Origin: an uncultured Rhodospirillaceae bacterium
Lineage (GTDB): Bacteria; Pseudomonadota; Alphaproteobacteria; UBA6615
DNA length: 64,000 bases
NCBI GenBank assembly: GCA_964530225.1
Contig: CAZHBA010000057.1
Location: 553 to 64,552 of the forward strand
Direction: 5' to 3'
Shown: in pieces, positions 2 through 29,995 of the stretch
Position numbering within the stretch: position 1 is the first letter of the stretch
How the letters are laid out: the number at the start of each line of letters is the position of its first letter
The notes under the pieces: model-generated
Database searches by the model: none
Told to the model about the DNA's origin: nothing
Seen by the model: only the letters and a program-made list of their open reading frames with translations
Made by a program: the position numbers and the translations under genes

Positions 2-1975
2 CCGGACCGCCTGCTGATCATCGCCCAGGCGCTACGGCTCGGTGTCCCGCGCGATGAAGTCCAGCGATTCACCCACTACGATCCCTGGTTCTTGGAGCAG
101 ATCGCCGGCATCGTCGAGACAGAAACCAAAATCCGTACCAATGGACTGCCGGACGACTACGACGGTCTGCTAGCATTAAAGCAAATGGGTTTCTCCGACG
201 CCCGCCTTAGCGAGCTTAGCGGACAGACCGAAGCCGAAGTGGCGGGCCTGAGAAACACTCTATCATTAGCGCCGACATTCAAACGCATCGACACCTGCGC
301 CGCCGAATTTCCCAGCCAAACGCCCTACATGTATTCGGCCTATGAGGGTTGCGCCGACCAACCCGGCGAGTGCGAATCGCGGCCCAGCGAACGTGATAAG
401 ATCATCATTCTCGGCGGTGGGCCCAACCGTATCGGCCAAGGCATTGAGTTCGACTATTGCTGCGTCCATGCCGTGTTTGCGCTGACCGAGGCGGGCTACG
501 AAACCATTATGGTTAACTGCAACCCGGAGACGGTATCGACCGATTACGACACCTCGGACCGGCTTTATTTCGAGCCTTTAACCGCAGAAGACGTGATCGA
601 AATATGCCGTGTGGAACAGCAGGCCGGTACCCTGAAAGGCGTAATCGTGCAATTTGGCGGACAGACCCCGCTCAAGCTGGCGCGCGCGCTGGAAGCCGCC
701 GAAATTCCCATCCTCGGTACCTCGCCCGATGCAATCGACCTGGCCGAAGACCGCAAACGGTTCCAGGAAATGCTGCATGAGTTGAAATTGCGGCAGCCGG
801 AAAACGGTCTCGCCACCAGCGCCGAAGAAGCGCTCGCGGTGGCGGAAACTCTGTCGTTTCCTCTGCTCATTCGGCCGTCCTATGTACTTGGCGGCCGAGC
901 CATGGAAATCGTCCACGATATGGACGGTGTGGTTCGCTACATCACCGAAGCCGTGAAGGTTTCCGGCGATAGCCCCGTATTGCTCGACAGCTTCCTGCAG
1001 GATGCCATCGAAGTCGATGTCGACGCGCTACGCGACACCAGTAACGACATCTACGTTGCCGGCATCATGGAGCATATCGAGGAAGCGGGCATCCATAGCG
1101 GCGATAGCGCCTGTTCGCTACCGCCGTTCTCGTTGTCCAAACAGGTTCTTGAAGAAATCAACCGGCAGGCGGCGGCGTTGGCGCAGGCGCTAAACGTCGT
1201 CGGCCTGATGAACGTGCAATTCGCCGTCAAAGACGACGAGGTCTACATCATCGAGGTCAACCCGCGCGCCAGCCGCACAGTGCCGTTCGTCGCCAAGGCG
1301 ACCGGGGTGCCAATCGCCAAGGTCGCAGCCCGGCTCATGGCCGGCGAACTGCTCGGCAACTTCAAGCTTGGCAAGAAAATATCCGCAGCGCCACCCGAGC
1401 ATGCTCACGTCGCGGTTAAGGAAGCAGTGTTTCCGTTTGCCCGGTTCCCCGGCGTCGATACGATTTTGGGGCCGGAGATGAAATCGACCGGCGAGGTTAT
1501 GGGTATCGATAACGATTTTGGCCATGCCTTCGCTAAGTCTCAGATCGGCGGTGGCACCAAGGTTCCACTCTTGGGTCGCGCATTTATTTCAGTGCGGGAG
1601 CGTGACAAAGCCAACATAATCGACCTTGCCCGGCGCTTGTCGGAGCTCGGTTTCGAGATCGTCGCCACCCGCGGCACGGCGCGCGCACTCAAGGACCAGG
1701 GGGTTCCGGTCAAAACTATTAACAAGGTGCTAGAGGGCCGGCCCCACGTCGTCGACGCCATGGCCAACGATGAGATCGATTTAGTGTTCAATACGACTGA
1801 AGGGGTGCAGTCGATCGCCGACAGCTACAGCCTGCGGCGGACCGCTCTGACCCAGGCAATTCCCTATTATACAACCGTAGCAGGCGCCCGGGCGGCCCTG
1901 ATGGCGATTGAGGCGATGAGCGACGGTGGTCTTGAAGTCGCGCCGCTACAGTCTTATTTTAGCACGTCATTTTAA
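2..1975 (+). CDS. carB: Carbamoyl-phosphate synthase large subunit, 3' portion; the gene starts before the window.
   Basis: The frame is open from nt 2 and reads ...[10 protein letters not shown]... The second ATP-grasp half and the MGS-like C-terminal domain are recognisable. greA follows, which is conserved synteny. Confidence 0.9.
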
Positions 1976-2087: not shown

Positions 2088-2561
2088 ATGGAAAAAACTC
2101 CAATGACCGCCGAGGGTCATGCGACCCTTCAGGACGAACTCCGCAATTTAAAAACCGTGGAGCGTCCCGCCGTTATCAAAGCCATCGCGGCCGCCCGCGA
2201 ACACGGCGATTTGTCCGAAAACGCCGAATACCATGCGGCACGTGAGCGGCAGGGCTTTATCGAGGGCCGCATCGGCGAGTTGGAGGACGCGACAAAACGC
2301 GCCGAAATCATCGATACGTCCAAGTTAAAGGGCAAAACCGTCCGGTTTGGAGCCAAGGTGAAGCTTGCCGACGAAGATTCCGGTGACGAAATCACCTATC
2401 AGCTAGTCGGCGAATTCGAGGCGGATTTAAAGAAAAAGAAAATCTCTATCGCTTCGCCGCTCGGCAAGGCCTTGATCGGCCGTGAGGCCGAAGACAGTGT
2501 CGAGGTACAAACGCCAAAAGGCGTACGCTACTACGAAATCGTCTCCGTCCGATTCAAATAG
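2088..2561 (+). CDS. greA: Transcription elongation factor GreA.
   Basis: 157 aa with an N-terminal coiled-coil (acidic tip around DLSENAEY) and a C-terminal FKBP-like domain. It lies immediately downstream of carB. Confidence 0.9.
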
Positions 2562-2594: not shown

Positions 2595-3110
2595 CTAGGA
2601 TTTGATGTCGTCCACCGGCACACCCGACTCGTGCTTGGACGTACGAATTACCTGAAATGTCTGCACCGTCGTCACGTGCGCCGCACTGGTCAGCCGGGTC
2701 GTTAGCTCGTTCTCGTGCGCCGTGTTGCGCGCGACCATGCGCAATAGAAAATCACCGCCGCCGCGGATCATGTCGCAGCGCCGCACTTCTGGCCATGCGC
2801 CGATTTCGGCTTCAAATTGGGACAGCACACCGCCGGCCTGGCTATTGAGGCCGACCAAAGCGTGAAAAGACACTTCGTAACCTAAAAGCTCACCGTCCAA
2901 ATCAGCATGGTAACCCGTGATGTATCCGGCTTTCTCCAATGCTCGCACCCGCCGCAGGCAGGGCGGTGCAGAAATTCCAGATAAACGAGCCAACTCAACA
3001 TTGGTCATCCGCCCGTCATCTCGTAAATTTTGCAAGATGCGACGATCGATGGAATCCAATTTGACCCGGCGCTGGGCCAGACTGTCGGTGGGACCGGAAG
3101 ACATCGCCAT
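2595..3110 (-). CDS. Lrp/AsnC-family transcriptional regulator.
   Basis: N-terminal HTH (LDSIDRRILQNLRDDGRMTNVELARLSG) and a C-terminal RAM/AsnC_trans domain. It is divergent from the operon starting at 3279. The start was chosen at an internal Met. Confidence 0.8.
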   Translation of the reverse strand: MAMSSGPTDSLAQRRVKLDSIDRRILQNLRDDGRMTNVELARLSGISAPPCLRRVRALEKAGYITGYHADLDGELLGYEVSFHALVGLNSQAGGVLSQFEAEIGAWPEVRRCDMIRGGGDFLLRMVARNTAHENELTTRLTSAAHVTTVQTFQVIRTSKHESGVPVDDIKS

Positions 3111-3278
3111 GGAAAACATTTCTCCAAAAATCGGTGGACACCGCCGCGCAATAATAGGAATCACCGCGACCGGTCGCCTATATTAACCGTAAATGGGCTG
3201 GCGTCCCGATGTTAGCAAATTGAAATAATATTTCAATCGGCGCTGGGGGGGGGCGGCTTTCAACAGTTCGGGTTTTCC

Positions 3279-4268
3279 GTGGCTAACACATCGACAACTA
3301 GCCCCGTCACTTGGGTCGTCACCGACGGCCGGCTTGGTATGATCAACCAATGCCGTGGTCTTGTGGCAGCTTTGGGCGTAACGGCCGAAGAAAAAAAGAT
3401 CGTACTTTCGGCGCCGTGGTGCTGGCTACCGCCCGCTATAACCCCTGCCTGGCTAAGCGTGCTGTCTGGGTCAGGCGACCAGCTGTCGCCGCCTTGGCCG
3501 GAATTGCTTATCGGCACCGGACGTAAATCGGTGACACCGGCGCTGGCCGTCAAACGGGCCAGCGGTGGACATACTTTTTGCGTGCAGGTGCAGAACCCCG
3601 ATGTGGCCCTGGAAAAGTTTGATTTGGTCATCGCGCCCGACCACGACCAGCTCAGTGGTAGCAACGTTCTGAATACATTGGGCTCACTGCATGGCATTAC
3701 CGCCACCGTCCTCGACGAAGCCAGAGTGCTCTTCGCCGATACCATTGCCGGGCTACCCCGGCCTCTGATCACCGTGTTACTTGGTGGCCACAATGCGGTC
3801 TACCGCATGGATGAGAGCATCGCCGCTCAGCTTGCCGATGATCTGGCGGCACTCGCTAGTGCCAAGGGTTACGGACTTGCCATCACCGCTTCGCCGCGCA
3901 CACCGAGCAAAACGGTCGACCTAATAAACCAGCGTCTTGCTACTGAACTGGTGAGCTCGAAAGCGGTATTTTGGGACGGCAATGGCGCCAACCCCTATCT
4001 GGGTTATTTGGCGCATGCCGACGCAATCATCGTAACTGGCGACTCGGTGAACATGGTCAGCGAAGCGGCGGCTACGGGAAAGCCCGTCCATGTCATCGAT
4101 TTGCCTGGCGGGTCCGATAAGTTTCGCCGCTTTCATACCGCTATGGCCAAGGCGGGAATTACCCGTCCCTTTAGCGGCGCCATAGAGTACTGGTCCTATA
4201 CCGCACCCAACGATACGAATCGTGTCGCGACGGAAATCCACCGCTGCATGAGCCAACGCGGCATCTGA
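3279..4268 (+). CDS. ELM1 / DUF1022 family protein, a predicted nucleotide-sugar-dependent transferase-like protein.
   Basis: About 330 aa. The N-terminal motif VTDGRLGMINQCRGLVAALG resembles the bacterial ELM1-family signature (xLTDGKxGHENQ). It is the first gene of a tightly spaced four-gene operon. Confidence 0.6.
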   Translation: MANTSTTSPVTWVVTDGRLGMINQCRGLVAALGVTAEEKKIVLSAPWCWLPPAITPAWLSVLSGSGDQLSPPWPELLIGTGRKSVTPALAVKRASGGHTFCVQVQNPDVALEKFDLVIAPDHDQLSGSNVLNTLGSLHGITATVLDEARVLFADTIAGLPRPLITVLLGGHNAVYRMDESIAAQLADDLAALASAKGYGLAITASPRTPSKTVDLINQRLATELVSSKAVFWDGNGANPYLGYLAHADAIIVTGDSVNMVSEAAATGKPVHVIDLPGGSDKFRRFHTAMAKAGITRPFSGAIEYWSYTAPNDTNRVATEIHRCMSQRGI

Positions 4269-4315
4269 GGCATTATGCCCTTTGCAATCCCCCGATCCGG
4301 GGTCTAAGACTCCCC

Positions 4316-4933
4316 ATGGCTGCGCTTAATCTAGCCGCAATCGATTCAGCGATGCCGAGCTATGATCCGTTCGAACACGTGATCGTGCCCGGTGTGTTAT
4401 CGGGCGATGTCTTGTCGGCGATCCACGAAGATTTCCCAAGGATCGATAAACCCGGCAGTCATCCGCTGTCGCAAATTTCCTATGGGCCTCGCTTCAACAC
4501 GCTGCTCGATGAACTGCGGTCGCATGAGTTCGCCGAACGGGTTGGCGCCAAGCTTGGCATCGATCTAGCTAACCGGCCAACGATGATCACGGTACGCGGC
4601 CAGTGCCGGACCACGGACGGCAAGATACACACCGATTCCGTGGGCAAACTGGTGACCGTCCTGATATATCTCAATCCCTCGTGGGAGGTACCAGGCGGGC
4701 AGTTGCGCTTGCTGCGCAACTGCCACGATCTGGATGATTATGTGGTCGAGGTACCGCCCGAGGAGGGCACGTTAGTGGCGTTCACCTGCAGCCCCAACGC
4801 CTGGCATGGGCATCACCCCTTCGAGGGTCAACGGCGGACAATCCAGCTAAACTGGGTCCACAGCCGAGGTTACAAATTGCGCGAACACGTGCGCCACACC
4901 ATATCGGCCAGCTTTAAGAAATTATCCGGTTAG
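4316..4933 (+). CDS. 2OG-Fe(II) oxygenase superfamily protein (prolyl-4-hydroxylase-like).
   Basis: An H-x-D...H iron-binding pattern (HTDSVGK ... WHGHH) sits in a double-stranded beta-helix-sized core. It begins 47 nt after the ELM1-like gene. Confidence 0.65.
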   Translation: MAALNLAAIDSAMPSYDPFEHVIVPGVLSGDVLSAIHEDFPRIDKPGSHPLSQISYGPRFNTLLDELRSHEFAERVGAKLGIDLANRPTMITVRGQCRTTDGKIHTDSVGKLVTVLIYLNPSWEVPGGQLRLLRNCHDLDDYVVEVPPEEGTLVAFTCSPNAWHGHHPFEGQRRTIQLNWVHSRGYKLREHVRHTISASFKKLSG

Positions 4934-4954
4934 GCCGGCGCAGAATTCATCGCC

Positions 4955-6955
4955 ATGGCCCTGAACATCGACACCTTTTCCAACATCAAGGGCGGCTTTC
5001 CGTTTTTCAAGGCGATGGACCATCCCGCGGTCGCGCCGAAAGCGCGCACTCTACTCACCCGCCTAGCCGATAACGGACCGCTGGCGATCTATGACCCGAC
5101 GGGCTTCGCCACGGCATTTTCCGAAATCTATCCGCTGACCGGCCTCGATATCGCCCATGTATATGTGCAGGATTTGTCCGCCCTGGGACAGCAAGTATTC
5201 GGCCACACGACCCAGCCGGTTACCGATTTGGCTTCTGACGATGTTACTTCGCTTCTGGTCGTCGCTTTCGATGCCGACAAGATTTTGCGCGACATCGCGC
5301 TTCTGGTGCCGCCAGCCACCGAAGTTTTCACCCTCGACGAGTTGCGCCTCGACGAGAGCCGACTGACCAACAAAAAACTTTATCTGGACCCGTTCAACTT
5401 TGCGACCAATTTCGCCTGGTTCCGCGACGCGCCAGATGGCCGCGGTGGCCACCTGCACAGCCGCGTGGCAACCGCCAACTATTGGCACCGCTATGGTGCC
5501 CGCGATGTGACCCTGTGGCTAACGCTACTCGATGAAACCGGGGAGACGATCGCCGAGTGGGACCAACCGTTACCCGACGCGCCCGCAGGCATCATCATCG
5601 ACAGCGCCGAGGTACGGGAACGCTTCGGTCTCAGCGACTTTACCGGTCAGCTGTTCTTGCACGCCATCGGCATCGCCGGCCACGATATCGTCAAATATGC
5701 GTTGGATACTTTCGGCGACGATCCCAAAGATCTGTCGTGCACCCATGACGCCAACGCCTGGCCGGCCGATTTTTATGCCGGACTGCCGGCACCGAAGGCC
5801 GACGAACGCGTGGTGCTATGGATCCAAAATAGCCACCCCTGCCCGATCCCCACCAACGCCATCGGCCTCAACCTCATGGGCGACGATGCGGACGCAGTGT
5901 GGCTGGACGAGGAAATTCCACCTTTTGCCACCTACGCGCTTGATGTCGCCCAGCTGCTGCCCGACATTGAGTGGCCGCAGCAGTTGGAAGTGCGCGCCGG
6001 CAAGCATTTCGTGCGGCCGCGTTACGAAATCGAGTGCACCTCTAACGGACAAATCAACCGGCGACGAATGGCGCACACCAATGTCGAGCGCACCGACCTA
6101 GAGCCCAACCCGCAGATCGCCGAGATCAGCAATTTGATGGGCAAGGGTTTCCTGCTTCCAGCACCAGTCTTGCCGCCGGAACGTTACCGCTCAATTATGT
6201 TGCCGACGCCAATGACGCGGACCCAAGAGATCCTGCCGGTCGCCGTCTTGATTTACGACGCAAAGGGCCGCGAGGTCGCCCGCCACAACTTCGGCGAACT
6301 CGCCCGCACCGAATGTGCCGCCATCAATGCCGACGAATTGGGTGATGGCCAGCTCAACGATACACTCGACGGCGAGGCCGGCCACATGGAATTGGTCTAC
6401 GACTTCCCCGCCGCGACGCGCGATGTCGACGGCTGGCTGCATGCGCTGTTCCGCTACGAAGACAAGGCGACCGGCCACGCGGCGGAATCGAGCTTCGGCG
6501 CACACATCTTCAATACGGTGCTGACCTGGAAGGACGAACCCCAGTCCTACACCGACAATCCACCGGGCCTGTCGACGCGGCTGTTTCTGCGCACTGCCCC
6601 GGGTATGGCCGTACCAGGGTTGGCGACGGATGGCGACGGCGCCAACAGTTTCTGCCAACTCATCTATCCCGCTTCAACGCCGTGGCACGGCGCCTCGCAG
6701 ACCGATCTTACGCTTCACGCCGGCGATGGCAGCGTGGTGGCAACACAGACGGTGAATATTCCTTGTGGCGGCTCGCTCTACTGGCTCCTCTCGGACATGT
6801 TTGACGAAAGCCAGCGCGCCCGCGCTGCCGAAGCTGGCCCAGCCGGCGGCGGTTATGTGATGATCCGCGATACCACCTGCCGGTTATTCGGTTATCATGG
6901 CCTGATCGCCGCCGACGGCGCAGCATTCAGCCTGGACCATATGTTCGGATTCTAA
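4955..6955 (+). CDS. Large hypothetical protein (666 aa): an N-terminal ~130-aa domain followed by three roughly 150-aa internal repeats.
   Basis: Long high-GC ORF with coding-like composition and no recognisable catalytic motif. It begins 21 nt after the oxygenase gene, and the next gene starts 22 nt after it. Confidence 0.7.
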   Translation: MALNIDTFSNIKGGFPFFKAMDHPAVAPKARTLLTRLADNGPLAIYDPTGFATAFSEIYPLTGLDIAHVYVQDLSALGQQVFGHTTQPVTDLASDDVTSLLVVAFDADKILRDIALLVPPATEVFTLDELRLDESRLTNKKLYLDPFNFATNFAWFRDAPDGRGGHLHSRVATANYWHRYGARDVTLWLTLLDETGETIAEWDQPLPDAPAGIIIDSAEVRERFGLSDFTGQLFLHAIGIAGHDIVKYALDTFGDDPKDLSCTHDANAWPADFYAGLPAPKADERVVLWIQNSHPCPIPTNAIGLNLMGDDADAVWLDEEIPPFATYALDVAQLLPDIEWPQQLEVRAGKHFVRPRYEIECTSNGQINRRRMAHTNVERTDLEPNPQIAEISNLMGKGFLLPAPVLPPERYRSIMLPTPMTRTQEILPVAVLIYDAKGREVARHNFGELARTECAAINADELGDGQLNDTLDGEAGHMELVYDFPAATRDVDGWLHALFRYEDKATGHAAESSFGAHIFNTVLTWKDEPQSYTDNPPGLSTRLFLRTAPGMAVPGLATDGDGANSFCQLIYPASTPWHGASQTDLTLHAGDGSVVATQTVNIPCGGSLYWLLSDMFDESQRARAAEAGPAGGGYVMIRDTTCRLFGYHGLIAADGAAFSLDHMFGF

Positions 6956-6977
6956 GCAGGAATAATAAGGGGAATTC

Positions 6978-7709
6978 ATGGAGGAGAAAGAATCGCGGAT
7001 CACCACCGCGGAAGGCGAGATGTATGCCTTTTCGGCCTGGCCGGAGGACGACGGACCGCACCCGGTGGTGATCATGTACATGGATGCACCGGGCATCCGC
7101 GAAAAACTGCGCAACTTCGCCCACCGCATCGCCGGCCAAGGCTATTACGCGCTGCTACCCGACCTGTATTACCGGCTCGGCGATATCCGCTTCAACCTGG
7201 CCAACCGCAACGACAAAATGGACGAGATGATCTTCGCTGCATGGCATAGCCTGAGCAACGCCGGGGTCGCCAGCGACACCAAGGCAATGCTCGAATTTCT
7301 CGGCAACGACGCGGAGGCCTCCGACGGTCCCATGGGCTGCGTCGGCTATTGTATGAGTGGCGCCTTCGTCGTCACCGTGGCCGGCACGTTCCCCGACCGG
7401 TTCGCAGCTAACGCCTCGCTCTACGGTGTCTGGATCGTCACCGAGCACGACGATTCGCCGCACCGGCTGGCCGATAAAATCGAAGGCGAAATGTATTTTG
7501 CCTTCGCCGAGCACGACCAGTGGGTGCCCGACAACGTCATTCCCGATCTTACCGCCACCCTCGACACACATGGGGTTGCCCACGAGATCGAAACCTATCC
7601 CGGCACCGAGCACGGCTACGCCTTTCCCGAGCGTGCCACGTACGACGAACCCGCCGCCGAGGCAACGTGGACAAAGATATTTGATCTGTATTCGCGCACG
7701 CTAGGATAA
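6978..7709 (+). CDS. Dienelactone hydrolase family protein.
   Basis: alpha/beta hydrolase fold with the nucleophile-elbow-like motif CVGYCMSGA and a DLH-like N-terminus. It is the last gene of the operon. Confidence 0.8.
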   Translation: MEEKESRITTAEGEMYAFSAWPEDDGPHPVVIMYMDAPGIREKLRNFAHRIAGQGYYALLPDLYYRLGDIRFNLANRNDKMDEMIFAAWHSLSNAGVASDTKAMLEFLGNDAEASDGPMGCVGYCMSGAFVVTVAGTFPDRFAANASLYGVWIVTEHDDSPHRLADKIEGEMYFAFAEHDQWVPDNVIPDLTATLDTHGVAHEIETYPGTEHGYAFPERATYDEPAAEATWTKIFDLYSRTLG

Positions 7710-7779: not shown

Positions 7780-8889
<1,110 letters not shown>

Positions 8890-9029
8890 GTTATGTACCG
8901 TTTTGTTCGCGCCAGCCTTGCCTCCCACGGGTGGCCCAACTATCTAAATACCAGCAAAATCAACATGGTCTCGTAAACCAACTCCGCTGGGCGGGTCCCG
9001 GCCGCCAGAAATTACTCAGGAACCCCAAC

Positions 9030-10001
9030 ATGCCCAAAACCCATCACTCCAAGGCCCTGATCATCGGCTCTGGCGCTGCCGGCTGTACGGCTGCCGTCTA
9101 TGCCGCACGCGCCAACCTGAAGCCAACGATGATCCACGGTATGCAACCGGGCGGCCAGTTGACGATCACCACCGATGTGGAGAACTTTCCGGGGTTCGCC
9201 GAGGCCATCCAGGGGCCTTGGCTGATGGAGCAGATGGAAGCGCAGGCGGAGAATGTGGGTACTGAAATCGTCAATGACGTGGTCACCGCCATCGACTTCA
9301 GTGCCCGCCCCTTCGCTTGCGAGTGCGATTCCGGCAACATCTATACTGGCGATACCTTGATTATCACCACCGGCGCCTCGGTACGCTGGTTGGGCCTTGA
9401 ATCCGAACAGAAGTATAGCGGCTTCGGGGTTTCTGCGTGCGCAACCTGCGACGGTTTTTTCTACCGCGACAAGCCGGTAATGGTGATCGGTGGCGGCAAC
9501 ACGGCAGTCGAAGAAGCGCTGTTCCTAACCAACTTCGCCAGCAAGGTGACACTAGTCCACCGGCGCAACGAATTGCGCGCCGAAAAGATCATGCAGGACC
9601 GCCTGTTGCACAACGACAAGATCGAAGTGACTTGGAACTCAGTTCTCGAAGAGGTAGCGGGTACCGACAACCCGCCGGGTGTCACCGGTGCACGGGTGCG
9701 TAACATTAAAACTGATGAGATCACCAAAATTGCTGTCGACGGTATTTTCATCGCCATCGGCCACGATCCCAATACGGCGCTGTTCAAGGGCTATCTGGAT
9801 ATGGACGATGAAGGCTACTTGATTACCGCGCCCGACAGTACGGCCACCAATATTCCCGGAATATTCGCCGCCGGCGACGTGAAAGACAAGATATTCCGCC
9901 AAGCGATCACCGCGGCCGGCATGGGCTGCATGGCCGCACTGGAAGCCGAGAAATTCCTCGCCGCGACCGAGGCAGGCAACACCCGCAACGCCACCGAGTA
10001 G
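9030..10001 (+). CDS. trxB: Thioredoxin-disulfide reductase.
   Basis: FAD motif GSGAAG, redox-active CATC and NADPH motif GGGNTA. The start was trimmed to MPKTHHSKALIIG. Confidence 0.85.
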   Translation: MPKTHHSKALIIGSGAAGCTAAVYAARANLKPTMIHGMQPGGQLTITTDVENFPGFAEAIQGPWLMEQMEAQAENVGTEIVNDVVTAIDFSARPFACECDSGNIYTGDTLIITTGASVRWLGLESEQKYSGFGVSACATCDGFFYRDKPVMVIGGGNTAVEEALFLTNFASKVTLVHRRNELRAEKIMQDRLLHNDKIEVTWNSVLEEVAGTDNPPGVTGARVRNIKTDEITKIAVDGIFIAIGHDPNTALFKGYLDMDDEGYLITAPDSTATNIPGIFAAGDVKDKIFRQAITAAGMGCMAALEAEKFLAATEAGNTRNATE

Positions 10002-10043: not shown

Positions 10044-10943
10044 GTGCCGATGGACTGGGATAAGCTGCGGATATTCCATGCGGTGGCGGAAGCCGGTAGC
10101 TTCACCCACGCTGGTGACAGTCTGCATTTGAGCCAGTCGGCGATCAGCCGGCAAATCAGTTCGCTGGAAGAATCGCTTAATTGCCGGCTATTCCACCGCC
10201 ATGCGCGCGGCCTACTGCTCACCGAGCAGGGCGATTTGTTGTACCGTACCGTGCACGAGGTCTTCGCCAAGCTAACCATGGCCGAAGCCCAACTCAATGA
10301 CGCGCAGGAAAGGCCCCAGGGTCCGCTCAAGATCGCGACAACGGTCGGTCTGGGATCGCTGTGGCTGACGCCGCGCATCCGCGAATTCATCGACCTCTAT
10401 CCCGACATCGAAGTCACCCTGATCACCTCGGACGAGGAGCTCGACGTTTCTATGCGCGAAGCCGACTGCGCCATTCGTCTGACGCCGCCGACCCAGCCGG
10501 ATTTAATTCAGCGCCGCATCACCCGCGTCAACACGCACGTTTTTGCGTCACCCGATTACCTACAGCAAAACGGGATGCCCGACCGGATTACCGATCTCGG
10601 CGCTCATAAATTGATCGTCTACAGCGAAGAAGGCACAATGCCAGCTCCAAATCTCAACTGGCTGCTCAATGCCGCGCGCGAAGCCATCGACGGCGAACCG
10701 CAAAAAATCCTCACCCTCAATAACCTTTATGGGATGGTCCGCGCGGTCGAGGCGGGAATTGGTATCGCCGGATTACCCGATTTCTTCGCCCGGGAATCGC
10801 GCAGCCTGGTTCGTGTTTTACCTGAGCTCGAAGGCCCCGGAAACGATGCTTTTTTTGTTTATCCGGAGGAACTGAGAGCATCGCAGCGTATTGGCGTATT
10901 CAGAGATTTCCTCATTAGAAAAGTCGCCGAAACGCGCTTCTAA
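10044..10943 (+). CDS. LysR-family transcriptional regulator.
   Basis: N-terminal HTH (FHAVAEAGSFTHAGDSLHLSQSAISRQISSLE) plus a LysR substrate-binding domain. Confidence 0.85.
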   Translation: MPMDWDKLRIFHAVAEAGSFTHAGDSLHLSQSAISRQISSLEESLNCRLFHRHARGLLLTEQGDLLYRTVHEVFAKLTMAEAQLNDAQERPQGPLKIATTVGLGSLWLTPRIREFIDLYPDIEVTLITSDEELDVSMREADCAIRLTPPTQPDLIQRRITRVNTHVFASPDYLQQNGMPDRITDLGAHKLIVYSEEGTMPAPNLNWLLNAAREAIDGEPQKILTLNNLYGMVRAVEAGIGIAGLPDFFARESRSLVRVLPELEGPGNDAFFVYPEELRASQRIGVFRDFLIRKVAETRF

Positions 10944-12145: not shown

Positions 12146-13357
12146 TTACGCCGTTTGTGGCCCCACCAAACGTTCCAGTAGCTGGTCACGGATCGGCCAA
12201 TGGAGCAGCGCCGCGATGATGCCAAGGGCAATCGAGGCATACCACATCGAGGTGTAACTGCCGGTCGCGTCGAACGCGACCCCGCCCAGCCAGGCACCCA
12301 AAAACGACCCGATTTGATGGCTAAAAAAGACAAAGCCGAACAGCATACCTAGATGTTTGGCGCCGAAAATACGCGCTACCACGCCGCCGGTCAGCGGCAC
12401 AGTCGACAGCCAAAACAGGCCGAACAATGCCGCAAAGACATAAATTGTCCATTCCGTTGTCGGCAGAATCATCAAAGCGGCAATTATGGCCGCACGAGCG
12501 AGATATATTAGACTCAACAAGTGTTTTTGGCGATATTTCTTACTCAACTCGCCAGCGATATACGTACCCACAATATTACCAAAGCCGATCACGGTCAGTG
12601 CCACCGCACTGACACCGGCGCTTAAACCTTGGGTGTCAATATATCCAGGCAGATGGGTACCGATGAACGTGACGTGAAAACCGCAGACAAAAAAGCCAGC
12701 GACCAGCAACAGATAGCCCGAATTTTTGCGTGCGGCAGATAGCACCTCGAATAAATTCAGTTCGGGATCATCTGTGATCACATCCTCCGCCGTATTGAAT
12801 AGGCGCGCCAGAGCCGCCATCAACAGGGCGACCACCCCGGCTGCAAGCAAAGCGAAAAACCAACCAGCAACTCCGATAACAGCCTGACTTACGCTCGGCA
12901 GAATCATTGGGCCCAACGCGCCGATGGTGCTAACGAGGGCCACCGCGTAGGTGCGGTTTTCCGGCGTCACCGCCCGCGACACAGCGCTATATACAACGGC
13001 AATACCGGTGCCGCTCATGCCTAGACCGATCAAAACACCGCCAGTGAGAACTAGTTCGGCTGGCGTGATCGCATTCGCCATCCCAAATACACCAATGGCA
13101 TAGAGGATCGCACCGCCGACTATCACCTTGCCCGTCCCGTAGCGGTCGCCGAGACCGCCGACGAGGGGCTGGGCCGCACCCCACAGCAGGTTCTGAACCG
13201 CTATGGCGAGGCCAAAAAGACCCCGGCTCCACTCCAGATCGATGGTCATCGGCACCAGGTAGAGGCCGAATGTCTGGCGCACGCCCAAGCTTATTCCGAG
13301 TACGGCTGCGCCAGCGATGATAATTGAAATCTGCGGGCGCGTCAGTGCGCGGCTCAT
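12146..13357 (-). CDS. MFS transporter.
   Basis: 12-TM-like hydrophobic profile with an MFS signature region (GGLGDRYG). Confidence 0.8.
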   Translation of the reverse strand: MSRALTRPQISIIIAGAAVLGISLGVRQTFGLYLVPMTIDLEWSRGLFGLAIAVQNLLWGAAQPLVGGLGDRYGTGKVIVGGAILYAIGVFGMANAITPAELVLTGGVLIGLGMSGTGIAVVYSAVSRAVTPENRTYAVALVSTIGALGPMILPSVSQAVIGVAGWFFALLAAGVVALLMAALARLFNTAEDVITDDPELNLFEVLSAARKNSGYLLLVAGFFVCGFHVTFIGTHLPGYIDTQGLSAGVSAVALTVIGFGNIVGTYIAGELSKKYRQKHLLSLIYLARAAIIAALMILPTTEWTIYVFAALFGLFWLSTVPLTGGVVARIFGAKHLGMLFGFVFFSHQIGSFLGAWLGGVAFDATGSYTSMWYASIALGIIAALLHWPIRDQLLERLVGPQTA

Positions 13358-13424
13358 TACCTTGTCCAACACTTGATGAGGTTGACTCTACCGGGGTATT
13401 ACATGCGATCCGTTGGTTAATCTG

Positions 13425-13810: not shown

Positions 13811-15103
13811 TTAGGCGAGTGACTCCGGCTTGGGTCCGCCCGTTGCCCAGTCGAGCAACTCCACCGTATGGACAATCGGCGCGTCGATGTCGTCGGCGAG
13901 CTGAGTCATACAGCCGATATTGCCGGTGGCGACGATGTCCGGTGTGGTCGCCGTGATGTTGGCGGCCTTGCGCTCACGTAGTTGGTCGGCCAACTCACTC
14001 TGCAAAATGTTGTAGGTCCCGGCCGAGCCGCAGCACAGATGGCCCTCGGCCGGCTCGCTAACCATGTATCCGGCGGCCGACAGCAGATCACGCGGCTGAC
14101 GATGCACGCTTTGGCCATGCTGCATGGAACATGCCGACTGATAGGTCACCCGCAGATCGGCCGCGTTGCCGGTGGCCGGCAATACGGCGCCGAGTTCAGT
14201 AACAAATTCGGTCACGTCGCAGGCCAGCTGCGAAATCCGAGTCGCCTTATGGGCGTAGTCCGGATCGTCGCGGAATATGAAGCCATAATCCTTGATCTGG
14301 GTGCCGCAGGCGCTGGAATTGATAATTACGGCATCGAGGCCGCCGGCGTCGATCTCGCGGATCCAGGCATCGACGGTGGCTTTCGCCTGGGCATGCGACT
14401 GATCGACCTTGCCCAGATGATGGACCAGCGATCCACAGCAGCCAGCGCCGTCGGCAACCACCACCTCAACACCCAGCCGCGTCAGCAGGCGTACTGTCGC
14501 CTCGTTGATCTGCGGCGCCAACACGGTTTGCGCGCAGCCGTTGAGCAAGGCGACGCGCTTGCGGCGTTCACCCTCAGCGGCGATCACTTGCGGCTTGTCG
14601 ACCGGCGACGGCTTGGGCATGCGCCGCGGTGCCAGCGCCAGACTAGCGCGAAACCGCTTGGGCAGCAGCCCGGCGAAAGGGCGCGCTATCATCGCCGCGA
14701 TCAGCGTCAGCCGGAATCGCGACGGATAGGGAATGGTCATCGCCAGACCCCAGCGGATTATTCGGTCCATAATCGACCGGCGGTAGGTCTCTTCGACGTG
14801 TTTGCGCCCCTGGTCGATCAAATGCTGGTAGTGCACGCCAGCCGGACAGGTGGCCATACACGACAGGCACGACAAACAGCGGTCGATATGGGTGACCACT
14901 TCGCGGCTGGCCGGCGCCTCGGCCTCCAGCATCTGCTTTATCAGATAGATGCGCCCACGCGGGCTATCGAGCTCGTCGCCGAGCAGTACGTAAGTGGGGC
15001 AGGTCGCGGTGCAGAAACCGCAATGGACGCAGGTGCGCAGAATATCGTTCACCACCGCGGTGTCGGAATCGGCCAGTTGCGCTAGCGAGAAGTGGGTCCG
15101 CAT
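13811..15103 (-). CDS. glcF: Glycolate oxidase iron-sulfur subunit.
   Basis: Two 4Fe-4S ferredoxin CxxCxxCxxxCP motifs plus CCG domains. It is the last gene of the glcDEF operon. Confidence 0.85.
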   Translation of the reverse strand: MRTHFSLAQLADSDTAVVNDILRTCVHCGFCTATCPTYVLLGDELDSPRGRIYLIKQMLEAEAPASREVVTHIDRCLSCLSCMATCPAGVHYQHLIDQGRKHVEETYRRSIMDRIIRWGLAMTIPYPSRFRLTLIAAMIARPFAGLLPKRFRASLALAPRRMPKPSPVDKPQVIAAEGERRKRVALLNGCAQTVLAPQINEATVRLLTRLGVEVVVADGAGCCGSLVHHLGKVDQSHAQAKATVDAWIREIDAGGLDAVIINSSACGTQIKDYGFIFRDDPDYAHKATRISQLACDVTEFVTELGAVLPATGNAADLRVTYQSACSMQHGQSVHRQPRDLLSAAGYMVSEPAEGHLCCGSAGTYNILQSELADQLRERKAANITATTPDIVATGNIGCMTQLADDIDAPIVHTVELLDWATGGPKPESLA

Positions 15104-15106
15104 CGC

Positions 15107-16357
15107 TTAAACCCCACGATACATGCGGCCAGGGTTGAGGATATGCCGAGGATCGAAGCTGTCTTTCACCCGCGCGGACAGGGCGGCCAAACCGGCGGCC
15201 TGGGGTTGGAAGACTTCGACTAGCGCCCGCACTTCGTCGGAGGCCCGCACCAGCGTCGCATGCCCGCCACCGTGCTGGCCGAGCGCCGAGCGCACAGCGG
15301 CGGTGCCGCCATCGTCGCCATCGTCGTCGACGCGGTACCAGATCAATCCGCCGCCCCAGTCGTAAAACGCCGTACCCGGCCGTGCATTGATTATATCGCG
15401 CAACACCGCCGCGCCTTCACTCGCGGTCACTGAAATGCGCCACAGAGGCTGATTGCCGACCTGAAACGGGACAACATCGCGCACTTCCTGCCAGAATATG
15501 GCCGAATTGGCACTGTGCAATTCCTCTAACGCCCCGAACGAGCCCAGCAGCGCACGCAGTGCCTCGGTGCGAGCTGCCACCGATGTATCGAACCCCTCGA
15601 CCCGCAACGCTGTTACCGCCACGCCGGCGCCGTTGACGTAACCGACCGCGGATTGCGCCGCCACCGGAGCAGGCAAGTGCGCAGCACCAGAGACCTCGTG
15701 GCTGGAGTTGAGTGCCACGGTCATCGCCTGCTGCGTCGTCTTATCGTCGAGACCAAATACTAAAACCGTGCGAATTTTTTCCGACGCCGGCAGCACCTTA
15801 ACGGTGATCTCGGTCAGCGCCGCGAGGGTGCCGTAAGACCCGGTCATCAATTTCGACAGATCGTAGCCGGTGACATTTTTAACCACGCGGCCACCGCTTT
15901 TGATCGCCTCGCCGCGTCCGCTCACGCCCGCTACTCCCAGGACGTGATCCCGCGCGGCACCGGCCTTGATACGCCGCGGGCCGGCCAGATTACAGGCGAT
16001 AGCACCGCCCAGGGTGCCGCCGTCATTGCCATACAGACGGGCCATATGCATCGGCTCAAAGGCCAGTTGCTGGCCACTTCCAACAGCCGCGGCCTCGATT
16101 TCGGCGAGCGGCGTGCCGGCACCGGCGGTGAGTACCAGCTCTTCAGGCTCGTACAGCGTGATGCCGCTTAAATGTGACAGGTCGAGGGTGTAGTCAATAA
16201 TGCGATTGCCTTCACCACTATGTTGGCCAAGTATTGGCCGACCAAGACCGCGCTTAGTCGCGGTGCCAGCAACCTCCAGCGGTACCTCCTCACCGACCGC
16301 CCAGGCAACGATCTCGACCACCTGTGCTGCATTCGTCGGCTGTAACAGTTCGGTCAT
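15107..16357 (-). CDS. glcE: Glycolate oxidase FAD-binding subunit.
   Basis: FAD_binding_4 family protein. It overlaps or abuts glcD and glcF. Confidence 0.8.
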   Translation of the reverse strand: MTELLQPTNAAQVVEIVAWAVGEEVPLEVAGTATKRGLGRPILGQHSGEGNRIIDYTLDLSHLSGITLYEPEELVLTAGAGTPLAEIEAAAVGSGQQLAFEPMHMARLYGNDGGTLGGAIACNLAGPRRIKAGAARDHVLGVAGVSGRGEAIKSGGRVVKNVTGYDLSKLMTGSYGTLAALTEITVKVLPASEKIRTVLVFGLDDKTTQQAMTVALNSSHEVSGAAHLPAPVAAQSAVGYVNGAGVAVTALRVEGFDTSVAARTEALRALLGSFGALEELHSANSAIFWQEVRDVVPFQVGNQPLWRISVTASEGAAVLRDIINARPGTAFYDWGGGLIWYRVDDDGDDGGTAAVRSALGQHGGGHATLVRASDEVRALVEVFQPQAAGLAALSARVKDSFDPRHILNPGRMYRGV

Positions 16358-16361
16358 AGCG

Positions 16362-17855
16362 CTAGAATCGCGGCAGGTTGGGAAATGGCATCTGGCCGCG
16401 GTTGATATGCATGCGGCCGAGCTCGGCGCAACGGTACAGGGTGGGAAAAACCTTGCCCGGATTCAGGAGTTGCTTCGGGTCGAAGGCGCATTTGACCCGC
16501 TGCTGCTGGTTTAAGTCTTCTTCGGAGAACATCAACCCCATCAGATCACGTTTCTCTACACCGACACCGTGTTCACCAGTAAGCACACCGCCAACTTCGA
16601 CGCATAACCGCAATATGTCCGAGCCAAAATCTTCGGCCCGTTCCAGTTCACCGGGATTGTTGGCGTCGTACATGATGAGCGGATGCAGGTTACCGTCGCC
16701 GGCGTGAAACACATTGGCAACGCCCAGTCCGTACTTCTCGGACAATTCCGCCGTGCGCGACAGCACTTCCGGTAACCGGTGGCGCGGGATGGAGCCATCC
16801 ATGCAGTAATAATCGGGGGTCAGGCGGCCGATGGCCGAAAAGGCCGCCTTGCGACCCGCCCAAAACTGCTCGCGTTCCTCTTCGCTCTCGCTGATGCGTA
16901 CCGAGACCGAACCTAAATCATCGGCAATCGAGCATACCTGCTCGATCAAATAATCGACTTCGGCAGGCGGCCCATCAAGCTCAACCAACAGCATCGCCTC
17001 AACATCCAGTGGGTAACCCACTTGCACGAAAGCCTCGGCCGCCTTGATCGCCAGCTGGTCCATTATTTCCATGCCGCTGGGGATAATGCCGTCACCGATA
17101 ATATTGGCAACGCATTGGCCGCTGGCCTCGGAACTGTTGAAGCCGATCATCACCGCCCGGGCAGTTGTCGGTTTCGGCAAAATTCGAACCGTGACTTCGG
17201 TGATAACCCCGAGCAGACCTTCCGAGCCGGTCATCAGGCCCAATAGATCGTAACCTTCGCTGTCCATGTGCTTGCCACCCAGGCCAACGATTTCGCCACC
17301 GGGCAGGACCATCTCGATGCCGAGGATATTGTTGGTGGTGAGACCATATTTCAGGCAATGCACGCCGCCGGAATTTTCCGCCACATTGCCGCCGATGGTG
17401 CAGGCAATCTGGCTCGACGGGTCGGGGGCGTAGTAAAATCCTTCGCCATCGACCGCTTGCGAGATGCCCAGATTGGTCACCCCGGGCTGCACCCGCGCAC
17501 AGCGGTTGTCGTAGTCAATTTCGAGCACCCGGTTGAACTTGCCCAACCCCAGGGTGATGCCATCGGCCAGGGGAAGTGCACCGCCAGACAACGACGTGCC
17601 GGCGCCACGCGGCACGATCTTCACATTGTTCTGATGGCAATAGGCCAGCACCTGGCTCACCTGGGCCACGGTTTCCGGCAGGACGACGATCATCGGTAAT
17701 TGGTGGTAAGCGGTTAGCCCATCGGTCTCGTAGACCGCCATCTCCTTCTCGTCGGAAATCACGCACGGGCCCGACACGATGGCGATCATCGCTGCAACAA
17801 TCTCGCCGCGCCGCACCAATACCGATTGATCGGGATCAGGCATTTTCATCGGCAC
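16362..17855 (-). CDS. glcD: Glycolate oxidase subunit GlcD (FAD-linked oxidase).
   Basis: FAD-binding PCMH domain plus FAD-oxidase C-terminal domain. It is the first gene of the minus-strand operon. Confidence 0.85.
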   Translation of the reverse strand: MPMKMPDPDQSVLVRRGEIVAAMIAIVSGPCVISDEKEMAVYETDGLTAYHQLPMIVVLPETVAQVSQVLAYCHQNNVKIVPRGAGTSLSGGALPLADGITLGLGKFNRVLEIDYDNRCARVQPGVTNLGISQAVDGEGFYYAPDPSSQIACTIGGNVAENSGGVHCLKYGLTTNNILGIEMVLPGGEIVGLGGKHMDSEGYDLLGLMTGSEGLLGVITEVTVRILPKPTTARAVMIGFNSSEASGQCVANIIGDGIIPSGMEIMDQLAIKAAEAFVQVGYPLDVEAMLLVELDGPPAEVDYLIEQVCSIADDLGSVSVRISESEEEREQFWAGRKAAFSAIGRLTPDYYCMDGSIPRHRLPEVLSRTAELSEKYGLGVANVFHAGDGNLHPLIMYDANNPGELERAEDFGSDILRLCVEVGGVLTGEHGVGVEKRDLMGLMFSEEDLNQQQRVKCAFDPKQLLNPGKVFPTLYRCAELGRMHINRGQMPFPNLPRF

Positions 17856-18365: not shown

Positions 18366-19394
18366 ATGAGCATACAGCACGAAACGATCGAAGAACTGAC
18401 GGCCAGTGGCGAGGAAATTCCGATCCTCGATCTGGGTCCCTATCTGGTTGGTGAACCCGGCGCGCTCGATGCGTTGGCAGCCGAACTGCGCCACGCCCAG
18501 GAAGACGTTGGCTTCTACTTTTCGATCAATCACGGCGTGCCGCGCGAGTTGATCCAGCGCGCCTACGATCAGCTGCGTAAACTGTTCGCTCTGCCGGAAG
18601 AGGAAAAGCTCAAGCTCAAGGTCGGCAAGGCGGGGCTTGGCTATATCCCGCCGAAGTCGTCGATCTACGTCACCTCGCCAGTCAACCAAAATACTATGCC
18701 CGACCTCAACGAGGTGATTTTGACGGCCCGCGAACGGCCCGCCGACCACCCGTCAATCGTCGCCGGGCGCCGCTTTACCGGCCCCAATAAATGGCCCAAC
18801 GAGACGTTGGTGCCGGGTTATCGCGAGACGTTGCTGGAATACTACGCGGTGATGGAGGCACTCGGTTACAAGATGTTGCCGGTATATGCCCGCGCACTCG
18901 GCCTGCCGGCGGATTATTTTGAACCGTTCTTCACCGACCCCACCTGGACCACGCGCAACGCCCACTACCCGCCGGCGCAGGCAGAGGACAACCAGTTCGG
19001 CATCGCGCCGCACCGCGACCATGGGTTCATTACGCTGTTACCCCTGTCTGAGGAGCCGGGCCTGCAGGTCCAGTCCAGCAGCGGTAAATGGATTTCGGCC
19101 AACATCATTGAGGACGCGATCGCCGTAAACACCGGCGAGTTCCTGAGCCGATGGTCGAACGGTCGTTTCATGGCTACCCCGCACCGGGTCGTGCCGCCCA
19201 AGCGCGACCGCTATTCGCTCGCCTTCTTCTTCAACCCCACTTGGGATGTGGTGTCGGAGCCCTTTCCCACTTGTGTTGGCCCCGACAATCCGCCGCAGTT
19301 CAAGCCAGGAACTTTCCTCGATTACCTGAACTGGTACGTTGACAGTAACTTCTCGAGTGCCGGTGGCGGCAAACGTCAACACGCTTCTGTGTAG
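18366..19394 (+). CDS. 2OG-Fe(II) oxygenase of the isopenicillin-N-synthase-like family.
   Basis: DIOX_N-like N-terminus (IPILDLG...) and a C-terminal HxD...H core (HRDHG...HRV). Confidence 0.75.
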   Translation: MSIQHETIEELTASGEEIPILDLGPYLVGEPGALDALAAELRHAQEDVGFYFSINHGVPRELIQRAYDQLRKLFALPEEEKLKLKVGKAGLGYIPPKSSIYVTSPVNQNTMPDLNEVILTARERPADHPSIVAGRRFTGPNKWPNETLVPGYRETLLEYYAVMEALGYKMLPVYARALGLPADYFEPFFTDPTWTTRNAHYPPAQAEDNQFGIAPHRDHGFITLLPLSEEPGLQVQSSSGKWISANIIEDAIAVNTGEFLSRWSNGRFMATPHRVVPPKRDRYSLAFFFNPTWDVVSEPFPTCVGPDNPPQFKPGTFLDYLNWYVDSNFSSAGGGKRQHASV

Positions 19395-29671: not shown

Positions 29672-29734
29672 GCTCTGCGGGCCATTACCCGAGCCGATTG
29701 ACATGCCCGGCCAAGGCGGTTAAATCTCCTCTAT

Positions 29735-29795
29735 CGCGCCGATTTGAGTGGCCAGCTTGCGGGCGCGTAATAAATGCAGCTAAATGGGCGATTTG
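29735..29795 (+). promoter_or_regulatory. Candidate SAM-responsive leader (SAM-II-like) upstream of metZ.
   Basis: CGATTTGA...CCAGCTTGC...GCAGCTAAA arrangement, repeated once more at 29790-29815. A stem (ccgcc...ggcgg) plus T7 at 29809-29838 follows. metZ and metA leaders in alphaproteobacteria commonly carry SAM-II. This is pattern recall only. Confidence 0.3.
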
Positions 29796-29995
29796 AACTC
29801 CGCCCAGCTTGGCTACGGCGGTTTTTTTGTTGTTTTAGAGAGTGTTAAGTAATTCCGGACCGATCCCCCGACGGCAGCGCCGCAAACTGGATCCGCGGTA
29901 ATTTGATGGGCAGCTTGCGTCCGCGTCACCAATAGCTAAAGCGCCGTGGGACAAACGTTCCGCGGGCCCGAACAACGGCCTCGGAACCGATTTGT

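Follow-up and report, generated by a model that had tools for sequence, protein, structure and literature searches.

In the window, i.e., the whole stretch of 64,000 nucleotides of DNA that was analyzed, a regulator gene on the minus strand is followed by a run of closely spaced genes on the plus strand:

2595–3164, minus strand: lrp, Lrp/AsnC-family regulator (PF13412, PF13404, PF01037)
3279–4268, plus strand: ELM1/GtrOC1 (KdoT-like) family glycosyltransferase, 329 aa (PF06258)
4316–4933, plus strand: Fe(II)/2-oxoglutarate (2OG) oxygenase, 205 aa (PF13640, E 9.9e-11)
4955–6955, plus strand: conserved large protein without a name, 666 aa (open reading frame; homologues)
6978–7709, plus strand: dienelactone-hydrolase-family alpha/beta hydrolase (DLH), 243 aa (PF01738, E 4.3e-40)
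7780–8889, plus strand: S-(hydroxymethyl)glutathione dehydrogenase (class III ADH; FDH) (TIGR02818)

The genes from the ELM1-like gene to the DLH gene are separated by 47, 21 and 22 nt and lie divergent from lrp, as was described in an earlier reading of this DNA (the sequence-only reading). The profile searches agree with its domain calls and with its naming of the next gene as a glutathione-dependent formaldehyde dehydrogenase, which reaches 607 bits against TIGR02818 (cut-off 544). The glycosyltransferase matches PF06258 (Mito_fiss_Elm1) over the full length (E 4.7e-99, 331.8 bits, profile positions 2–302 of 304). The regulator carries an AsnC-type HTH (PF13404, 1.1e-14) and an AsnC_trans_reg ligand domain (PF01037, 1.1e-12), its score of 95.9 against the NCBIfam Lrp equivalog stays below the cut-off of 233, and its listed GTG start lies probably too far upstream. 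The operon boundary at position 7709 is arbitrary: fdh, trxB and lysR continue on the plus strand, and the first convincing plus-strand terminator-like site downstream of the cluster is located at position 11224, with a weaker one inside the oxygenase gene at position 4386. A function as defence system was discarded, as PADLOC returned only a generic 2OG match.

The conservation of this arrangement was analyzed in the 80 closest among at least 587 genomic loci, of which 62 had enough flanking sequence for the upstream counts; the downstream counts refer to 56 loci. In 60 of 62 loci the 4.5 kb upstream of the large gene contain an ELM1-like gene, and in 40 of 62 they contain a 2OG oxygenase gene, which is absent from the block in roughly one third. 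The genes are encoded on the same strand without exception, with short or overlapping junctions and in the order ELM1-like gene, oxygenase gene (optional), large gene. This association is far beyond chance, and the suggested co-occurrence of the DUF1022 protein, the oxygenase and the large protein beyond this genome is thereby borne out. Culturable bacteria with the complete block include Pelagibius litoralis, Nitrospirillum, Rhodocista pekingensis and Oleisolibacter albus. The conserved unit consists of three genes and is not the four-gene operon proposed before, which is ruled out by the rarity of DLH, found behind the large gene in no more than 6 of 56 loci (all within L001–L007), and of FDH (5 of 56 loci), and by the variable interval in front of trxB, which elsewhere carries DsbD, SulP, VWA, Fic and ChrA genes. 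This interval is insertion-prone, and DLH and FDH are clade-specific passengers outside the conserved module. For this reason the proposed link between the oxygenase and formaldehyde released by demethylation is left without support; moreover, as a P4H/PolD-like enzyme the oxygenase belongs to the hydroxylase type. Similarly, Lrp, the divergent neighbor, is a conserved synteny partner in the alphaproteobacterial loci and lies outside the mobile core: in 55 of 62 loci its gene lies no further than 4.5 kb upstream, and it is missing in L037, L042 and L051 as well as in every translocated copy, i.e., those of Methylophilaceae, Competibacteraceae and L081.

In most alphaproteobacterial loci the block is surrounded by a housekeeping synteny (carB-greA-lrp-...-trxB-lysR), and it could persist by inheritance alone. 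According to this explanation, the genes would share no function and the large protein would work elsewhere, for example in the thioredoxin system. This is in agreement with the location of trxB, which in 42 of 56 loci lies no more than 4.5 kb downstream of the large gene, with the situation in Azospirillum, in which the large gene has kept only trxB as a neighbor, ELM1-like and 2OG genes being absent within 7–10 kb, and with four cysteines that are invariant among the closer homologues of the large protein. However, in the divergent set C642 is the only nearly invariant cysteine, unrelated genes are inserted between the large gene and trxB, and outside the synteny, i.e., in two Methylophilaceae loci, one Competibacteraceae locus and L081, the large gene accompanies the ELM1-like gene without trxB. 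An inherited synteny without common function is thus considered quite improbable.

Outside the alphaproteobacterial synteny the module stays together. The gene order is 2OG-ELM1-large-GT4-GT9-MTase-GT in the two Methylophilaceae loci and ELM1-large-GT4-GT9 in Competibacteraceae, and in L081 the ELM1-like and large genes are adjoined by genes for an LpxL-like protein, a GT2, a WaaL-like Wzy_C protein and a GT4. In Stellaceae and Aliidongia a tandem-PAP2 gene sits between the ELM1-like and the large gene, and in L043 it is accompanied by a neighboring PMT_2 (ArnT-like) gene. The ELM1-like gene is found among LPS core or Kdo genes in L073, L079, L080, L081, the Stellaceae loci and on Sinorhizobium meliloti pSymB, where the homologue lies beside kdsB (CMP-Kdo synthetase) and kpsF. 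This does not apply to the window, in which no LPS genes are present near the module, and LPS genes are absent beside the module in most alphaproteobacterial loci. Capsule Kdo transferases are known, and the module might serve another glycoconjugate containing Kdo or a different ulosonic acid, such as a capsule/K-antigen, a lipid linker or a secreted polysaccharide, instead of the LPS core. The pSymB homologue, which is encoded together with several further glycosyltransferases on a megaplasmid and not at a core locus, would fit to such a role, as would a Polysacc_synt_3 flippase-like gene near the module in L082. However, the neighbors of the translocated copies are LPS-specific (GT9, Lip_A_acyltrans, Wzy_C/WaaL-like ligase, lipid A PAP2, PMT_2), and the loci scanned showed no genes for capsule export (KpsMT, Wza) next to the module, making this alternative unlikely.

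The transferase, named "ELM1/GtrOC1 family putative glycosyltransferase" by PGAP, was previously assigned to a family of unknown bacterial function. However, KdoT from Acinetobacter baumannii (A1S_2903, GtrOC1-type), which is the only characterized bacterial member of the ELM1 family, was biochemically shown to function as CMP-Kdo transferase in the synthesis of the LOS inner core, where it, independently of WaaA, transfers a third Kdo (KdoIII) from CMP-Kdo onto Kdo2-lipid A, and a Rickettsia homologue complements partly (PMC10936431, PMC12856342). KdoT adopts a GT-B fold composed of two Rossmann-like domains, and mutagenesis revealed that R180, the second arginine of its SRRT motif, is required for activity whereas R179 is dispensable (PMC12856342). 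Among 72 homologues adjoining the large gene, SRRT is present in 68 and SPRT in three, including the window; the L081 protein has SRRT. In the window transferase the motif reads S205-P-R207-T208, i.e., only the dispensable first arginine is replaced and the essential second one is kept, so that the motif can be regarded as retained. Compared by family and motif, the transferase and KdoT share PF06258, the donor-binding motif of the subfamily, a soluble or peripheral character and a similar size, and LPS-type clusters house the module where it was moved. In contrast, KdoT acts together with GnaT, a GT4 enzyme, while neither a 2OG oxygenase nor a 640-aa protein is associated with it, and the window copy differs by its SPRT. 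From its sequence, the ELM1-like protein of the window is predicted to be a CMP-ulosonic-acid (Kdo) transferase.

In the oxygenase the iron triad is intact (H105-x-D107...H164/H166) and is accompanied by R173 as the basic residue for the C5 carboxylate of 2OG; all of these residues are invariant both in a set of 20 and in a set of 28 homologues. The protein shows the double-stranded beta-helix fold and is soluble, with a basic C-terminal helix and without a transmembrane anchor. For structure prediction, database homologues were used. The characterization as a prolyl-hydroxylase-like 2OG oxygenase holds with respect to PF13640 and the iron triad. However, the nearest solved relative is no prolyl hydroxylase but PolD from the polyoxin pathway of Streptomyces cacaoi (PDB 9blq, 28% identity, by which the substrate is not transferable to the window oxygenase), and the structural matches that come next are prolyl hydroxylases acting on ribosomal and other proteins. 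PolD is involved in the oxidative processing of an eight-carbon octosyl-acid nucleoside (PMC5365060, PMC12614342). PolD as well as PasI from Photorhabdus asymbiotica (PDB 9ei7), for which no describing paper was found, are secondary-metabolite enzymes from actinomycete and enterobacterial clusters.

For the Kdo-lipid A region, two Fe(II)/2OG enzymes active at the cytoplasmic face are known: the Kdo 3-hydroxylase KdoO, which forms Ko in Burkholderia and Yersinia, and the lipid A acyl hydroxylase LpxO. The role proposed for the oxygenase is analogous, but no sequence relationship to the P4H/PolD-like module enzyme was detected. For 20 oxygenase members no match to the KdoO family was obtained in Pfam at E ≤ 1, the PDB profile search yielded no KdoO chain at E ≤ 10, and the LpxO/aspartyl-asparaginyl beta-hydroxylase family is absent from the Pfam and PDB matches; an identity of the oxygenase with KdoO or LpxO was rejected accordingly. 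A literature search for GtrOC1 together with a Kdo hydroxylase gave nothing useful. Furthermore, no published description was found for the oxygenase or for the large protein, in line with the earlier notion that the system was not characterized before.

The large protein is 666 aa long in the window and usually 632–662 aa elsewhere. It was said to have no recognizable homology, and indeed there is no sequence match in Pfam, NCBIfam or the PDB; the statement is nevertheless misleading, as at least 4648 homologues in at least 587 species genomes exist, all of them unnamed ("hypothetical"). The predicted architecture of this acidic, cytoplasmic and, by prediction, soluble protein comprises an N-terminal Rossmann-like domain (approximately residues 14–135) and four beta-sandwich domains. 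Its description as a repeat protein is ruled out by the lack of sequence similarity between the domains, the best hhalign probability among the five domain sub-alignments being 10.5%. For the predicted structure neither a whole-fold match nor a match to a catalytic fold was obtained, so that the label "enzyme" is a guess. The ASRT/TM1070 (ASRAH) beta-sandwich superfamily contains predicted sugar-binding domains (PMC2739507); however, these are single-domain proteins of about 110 aa, in contrast to the five-domain large protein with its many invariant polar residues, and a relationship at the sequence level was not found. Many histidine, aspartate, glutamate and arginine residues of the large protein are invariant, as are its C-terminus FSLDHMFGF and the loop E528-PQSY...P537-G-L, which has low confidence in the model. 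The median identity among the homologues is 56%, a degree of conservation similar to that of GreA and Lrp. This housekeeping-level conservation argues for an enzyme or an obligate partner and against the passive substrate suggested by the sequence-only reading.

This loop is a possible target in a further explanation, i.e., a cytoplasmic protein hydroxylation-glycosylation system in which the P4H-like oxygenase would hydroxylate a proline of the large protein that is subsequently glycosylated by the ELM1-like transferase. The invariant and probably flexible loop, EPQSY..(P/A)PGL, contains an X-Pro-Gly motif as candidate site, and the pairing of a P4H-like oxygenase with a glycosyltransferase is known from the prolyl hydroxylation and glycosylation of Skp1 by PhyA and Gnt1, the logic invoked in the earlier proposal of a hydroxylate-then-glycosylate pathway. 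In contrast to the Skp1 system, the module contains a member of a lipid A Kdo transferase family, its oxygenase resembles small-molecule enzymes more closely, and its contexts include LPS clusters. A modification of the large protein appears very improbable. The more general logic of oxidation plus glycosylation remains plausible. The earlier proposal itself named placement of the genes in LPS biosynthesis as an argument against it, and in other lineages LPS core and lipid A clusters are indeed the context of the module.

With moderate confidence, it is suggested that the three-gene module most likely assembles or modifies the Kdo region of the LPS inner core at the cytoplasmic face of the inner membrane. 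Judged by family and motif, the ELM1-like enzyme would act as an inverting GT-B transferase using the CMP form of Kdo or of a related ulosonic acid as donor and Kdo2-lipid A or an early core intermediate as acceptor. The oxygenase, for which the assignment is weaker, may oxidize a carbohydrate, namely the free eight-carbon sugar acid, CMP-Kdo or the transferred residue, analogous to the hydroxylation of Kdo to Ko by KdoO but by an unrelated P4H/PolD-like enzyme. Most tentatively, the large protein could be a dedicated partner. It might be a new enzyme, in which the Rossmann-like N-terminal domain binds the nucleotide-sugar and the ASRT-like beta-sandwiches bind the glycan, or it might serve the transferase as an obligate scaffold. 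Synteny or insertion accounts for the presence of Lrp, DLH, FDH and trxB, which are not components. The departure of SPRT from SRRT in the window transferase, the Azospirillum large gene without an ELM1-like neighbor, the optional 2OG gene, the lack of LPS genes near the module in the window and in most alphaproteobacterial loci, and the possible persistence of the block in the housekeeping synteny count against the LPS reading. The same applies to the oxygenase, which matches neither KdoO nor LpxO and has prolyl hydroxylases next to PolD among its structural matches, and to the large protein with its missing catalytic-fold match.

A bolder version is possible but doubtful: the 640–666-aa protein would define a new family of enzymes whose fold arrangement has no counterpart in the PDB, and together with the PolD-like oxygenase and the KdoT-like transferase it would make and install a so far unrecognized oxidized or remodeled octulosonic-acid residue in the LPS inner core. 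Besides alphaproteobacteria of the Rhodospirillales type, the range of this system would include some beta- and gammaproteobacteria. Less likely is the version in which bacterial cytoplasmic prolyl-hydroxylation and glycosylation take place at the invariant X-Pro-Gly loop of the large protein.

As a summary, the module most likely belongs to LPS inner-core biosynthesis, with the oxygenase and the large protein as its two uncharacterized components. It was long thought that WaaA alone performs Kdo transfer in the LPS inner core, a view that was changed by KdoT in 2024–2025 for Acinetobacter only. Judging from this locus, a KdoT-like step appears to be widespread among free-living alphaproteobacteria, with abundant marine lineages and the plant-associated Azospirillaceae among them, and seems to come with two dedicated uncharacterized partners. 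The family of the module transferase also includes the plant mitochondrial fission factor ELM1, a kinship that offers a further link of interest. Finally, a function for the large protein would annotate thousands of "hypothetical proteins" and could reveal new sugar-acid chemistry or a new organization of core assembly.

The gene for an unnamed 666-aa protein (large protein) lies directly downstream of an ELM1-like glycosyltransferase gene and a small 2OG oxygenase gene, and its surroundings in the window are as follows.

92-1975, plus strand, carB (ORF listing)
2088-2561, plus strand, greA (ORF listing)
2595-3164, minus strand, Lrp/AsnC regulator (ORF listing)
3279-4268, plus strand, ELM1-like, 329 aa, Mito_fiss_Elm1 (PF06258), E 4.7e-99
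4316-4933, plus strand, 2OG oxygenase, 205 aa, 2OG-FeII_Oxy_3 (PF13640), E 9.9e-11
4955-6955, plus strand, large protein, 666 aa, no Pfam/NCBIfam assignment
6978-7709, plus strand, dienelactone hydrolase (DLH), 243 aa, PF01738, E 4.3e-40
7780-8889, plus strand, S-(hydroxymethyl)glutathione dehydrogenase (FDH), TIGR02818, above cut-off
8931-10001, plus strand, thioredoxin reductase (trxB), Pfam/NCBIfam
10044-10943, plus strand, LysR regulator, Pfam/NCBIfam

The spacings of 47, 21 and 22 nt among the ELM1-like, 2OG, large and DLH genes, from which the sequence-only reading had derived a four-gene operon, match the ORF listing. An operon end at 7709 is arbitrary, since in a consensus scan the first convincing plus-strand terminator after the cluster is located at 11224, 3' of lysR; a weaker terminator-like site lies at 4386 within the 2OG gene. 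None of the four encoded proteins contains a hydrophobic segment of membrane-span length. The Lrp ORF as listed has a GTG start 35 codons ahead of the HTH domain; translation probably begins at one of the internal ATGs (MFSMAMSSG...), and the divergent intergenic region would then be wider. No LPS genes occur near the block in the window, its neighbors being a glycolate oxidase, an MFS transporter and an ABC transporter. The glycolate-oxidase-like set of GlcDEF type (13811-17855, minus strand) comprises three genes (FAD_binding_4 plus FAD-oxidase_C; FAD_binding_4; Fer4/CCG iron-sulfur subunit) and adjoins the MFS transporter (12146-13372). A second, unrelated 2OG oxygenase of isopenicillin-N-synthase-like type (18366-19394, plus strand; DIOX_N and 2OG-FeII_Oxy) is followed 3' by a DegP-like protease and an amino-acid ABC transporter. 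Moreover, a SAM-II (alphaproteobacterial SAM_alpha) riboswitch (29726-29803, plus strand, 47.4 bits), 5' of a 412-aa ORF (29946-31184), confirms the alphaproteobacterial origin of the genome.

The large protein had been described as lacking recognisable homology; it has at least 4648 homologues in databases, all labeled hypothetical, and at least 587 species carry the gene (one genome per species scanned). The 80 closest of these species' loci were searched with all ten window proteins, and genes within 4.5 kb of the large gene were counted in loci with enough flank. Upstream, the ELM1-like gene is present in 60/62, lrp in 55/62 and the 2OG gene in 40/62 loci; downstream, trxB is present in 42/56, DLH in only 6/56 and FDH in 5/56, the latter two confined to the nearest relatives of the window. 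In the loci examined, the ELM1-like and 2OG genes invariably share the strand of the large gene, and three arrangements occur: ELM1-2OG-large, ELM1 directly adjoining large, and, in Stellaceae, an insert of ~3 kb between ELM1 and large. In other loci (among them L016, L020, L040, L041, L048, L056, L057) the genes lying between the large gene and trxB are instead DsbD, a SulP transporter, VWA (VWA/PEP-CTERM), Fic, a chromate transporter or cytochrome c, with otherwise stable synteny; this stretch behaves as an insertion hot spot, and DLH and FDH are passengers in it. The four-gene unit thus reduces to the ELM1-like, 2OG and large genes, and the expected co-occurrence is found for the ELM1-like gene and, in part, for the oxygenase, which is missing from the remaining loci. 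Four typical Rhodospirillales-type blocks lie in MAGs labeled Anaerolineae, Rhizobium, Rickettsiales and Candidatus Odyssella (L032, L037, L045, L062), likely due to mis-binning or loose taxonomy labels. In two long-read metagenome contigs (L082, L086) the ELM1-like gene, trxB and others are in fragments, presumably by frameshift errors, and divergent large-protein architectures from such contigs (P0172, P0174) need caution.

Both loci without an ELM1-like gene are from Azospirillum. In the Azospirillum loci L083 (10001-13000, A. lipoferum 4B), L074 and L075, trxB lies 3' of the large gene and a divergent PadR gene 5', and no ELM1-like or 2OG gene is found within 7-10 kb of it. This would fit mere synteny with a thioredoxin-related role of the large protein, an explanation we regard as unlikely; neither lrp nor trxB is present in any of the relocated copies of the block. 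Two Methylophilaceae MAGs have the order 2OG-ELM1-large-GT4-GT9-methyltransferase-GT and one Competibacteraceae MAG the order ELM1-large-GT4-GT9. In L081, which encodes a divergent homologue of the large protein (39% identity), ELM1-large lies beside Lip_A_acyltrans (lipid A late acyltransferase), GT2, a Wzy_C/WaaL-type ligase and GT4. Between ELM1 and the large gene, Stellaceae and Aliidongia encode a double-PAP2 protein (LpxE/LpxF-like), and in locus L043 a PMT_2 (ArnT-like) glycosyltransferase gene adjoins it. The neighbors of the relocated blocks are genes characteristic of the LPS core and of lipid A.

For ELM1 proteins a bacterial function is by now known, contrary to the sequence-only reading. 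In A. baumannii, A1S_2903 (KdoT) was shown to be required for the third Kdo, an eight-carbon sugar acid, of the LOS core (PMC10936431). In vitro it transfers Kdo from CMP-Kdo onto Kdo2-lipid IVA or lipid A, and homologues, including one from Rickettsia, at least partly complemented the mutant (PMC12856342). In its invariant SRRT motif the second Arg is essential to activity and the first dispensable (PMC12856342). Among 72 ELM1 homologues beside the large gene the motif reads SRRT in 68, SPRT in 3 and SRRS in 1, and the ELM1-like copy of a divergent locus likewise has SRRT. The window protein and two close relatives have SPRT (residues 205-208; 3891-3902), the Arg replaced being the one dispensable in KdoT; the published KdoT homologues all have SRRT. 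RefSeq labels the family 'ELM1/GtrOC1 family putative glycosyltransferase', and on S. meliloti pSymB (L085, 6764-9768) such a gene adjoins a GT92-family gene, CMP-Kdo synthetase and KpsF, which is a second, independent tie of the family to Kdo. The product of this gene may be a Kdo transferase that serves the K-antigen of rhizobia, which is rich in Kdo. A role of the block in another Kdo-containing glycoconjugate would accord with this neighborhood, and less so with the lipid A genes beside the relocated copies; we give it a small but real chance. The KdoT family and the LPS-type neighbors largely place the genes in LPS biosynthesis, an outcome which the sequence-only reading had itself named as contrary to its proposed hydroxylation/glycosylation system.

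For the oxygenase, H105, D107, H164, H166 and R173 are invariant in alignments of 20 and of 28 homologues; with its iron/2OG residues retained it is predicted to be catalytically active. Its profile searches found neither KdoO nor LpxO. It had been read as prolyl-hydroxylase-like, whereas it scores 20.6 against Streptomyces cacaoi PolD (9blq, 28% identity) and 20.5 against Photorhabdus PasI (9ei7), compared to about 16 for OGFOD1/Tpa1 and about 13 for prolyl 4-hydroxylases. PolD belongs to the 2OG enzymes of polyoxin biosynthesis that oxidatively process octosyl acid, the nucleoside of an eight-carbon sugar acid (PMC5365060, PMC12614342). This nearness shifts the expectation from protein prolyl hydroxylation toward carbohydrate oxidation. 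Octosyl acid and Kdo/CMP-Kdo are each eight-carbon sugar acids with a nucleoside or nucleotide conjugate, a likeness that may hint at the substrate, 28% identity being too low for substrate transfer.

The large protein shows 55-60% identity across very different alphaproteobacteria and, despite an earlier label, no sequence repeat. When 1.8 billion representatives were searched exhaustively by HMM, no more than 751 clusters matched; of the 150 listed, many are short and incomplete, and a scan of eight divergent members gave no Pfam domain in any of them. The AlphaFold model (pLDDT 84, pTM 0.85) shows a Rossmann-like domain at the N-terminus together with four beta-sandwich domains; Foldseek returned only generic sandwich-domain strings (TM-scores about 0.1), and no recognisable catalytic fold was seen. 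Sugar binding was predicted for the ASRT superfamily (PMC2739507). Many polar residues are invariant even at 34-57% identity, as is the C-terminus FSLDHMFGF, and the protein's median identity over the loci, 56%, comes near the values for GreA (62%) and Lrp (59%). This conservation fits an enzyme or obligate complex subunit better than the passive substrate once suggested. A loop at residues 522-540 (6518-6574; pLDDT below 50) with the strictly invariant E528-P-Q-S-Y...P537-G-L carries an X-Pro-Gly motif, and it may serve as a lid, as a peptide that binds a partner or as a site of hydroxylation. A system that would hydroxylate and glycosylate the protein at this loop is an alternative that we consider improbable.

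As a summary, an LPS inner-core module is the best-supported reading of the block, which we hold with slightly better than even confidence. Most firmly, the ELM1-like protein would perform a KdoT-like ulosonic-acid transferase step. With moderate confidence, the 2OG enzyme would act on carbohydrate, resembling KdoO in function but unrelated to it. Most tentatively, the large protein may be a dedicated partner, possibly binding nucleotide-sugar and glycan. Weak points of this reading are the inherited housekeeping synteny of the alphaproteobacterial loci, the optional oxygenase and the Azospirillum copies without an ELM1-like gene nearby. Neither the pathway context nor the transferase family is new; a literature search found no description of the three components together. 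New is the conserved coupling, in hundreds of species, of a KdoT-like enzyme, a PolD-like oxygenase and a large, unnamed and structurally unmatched protein family.
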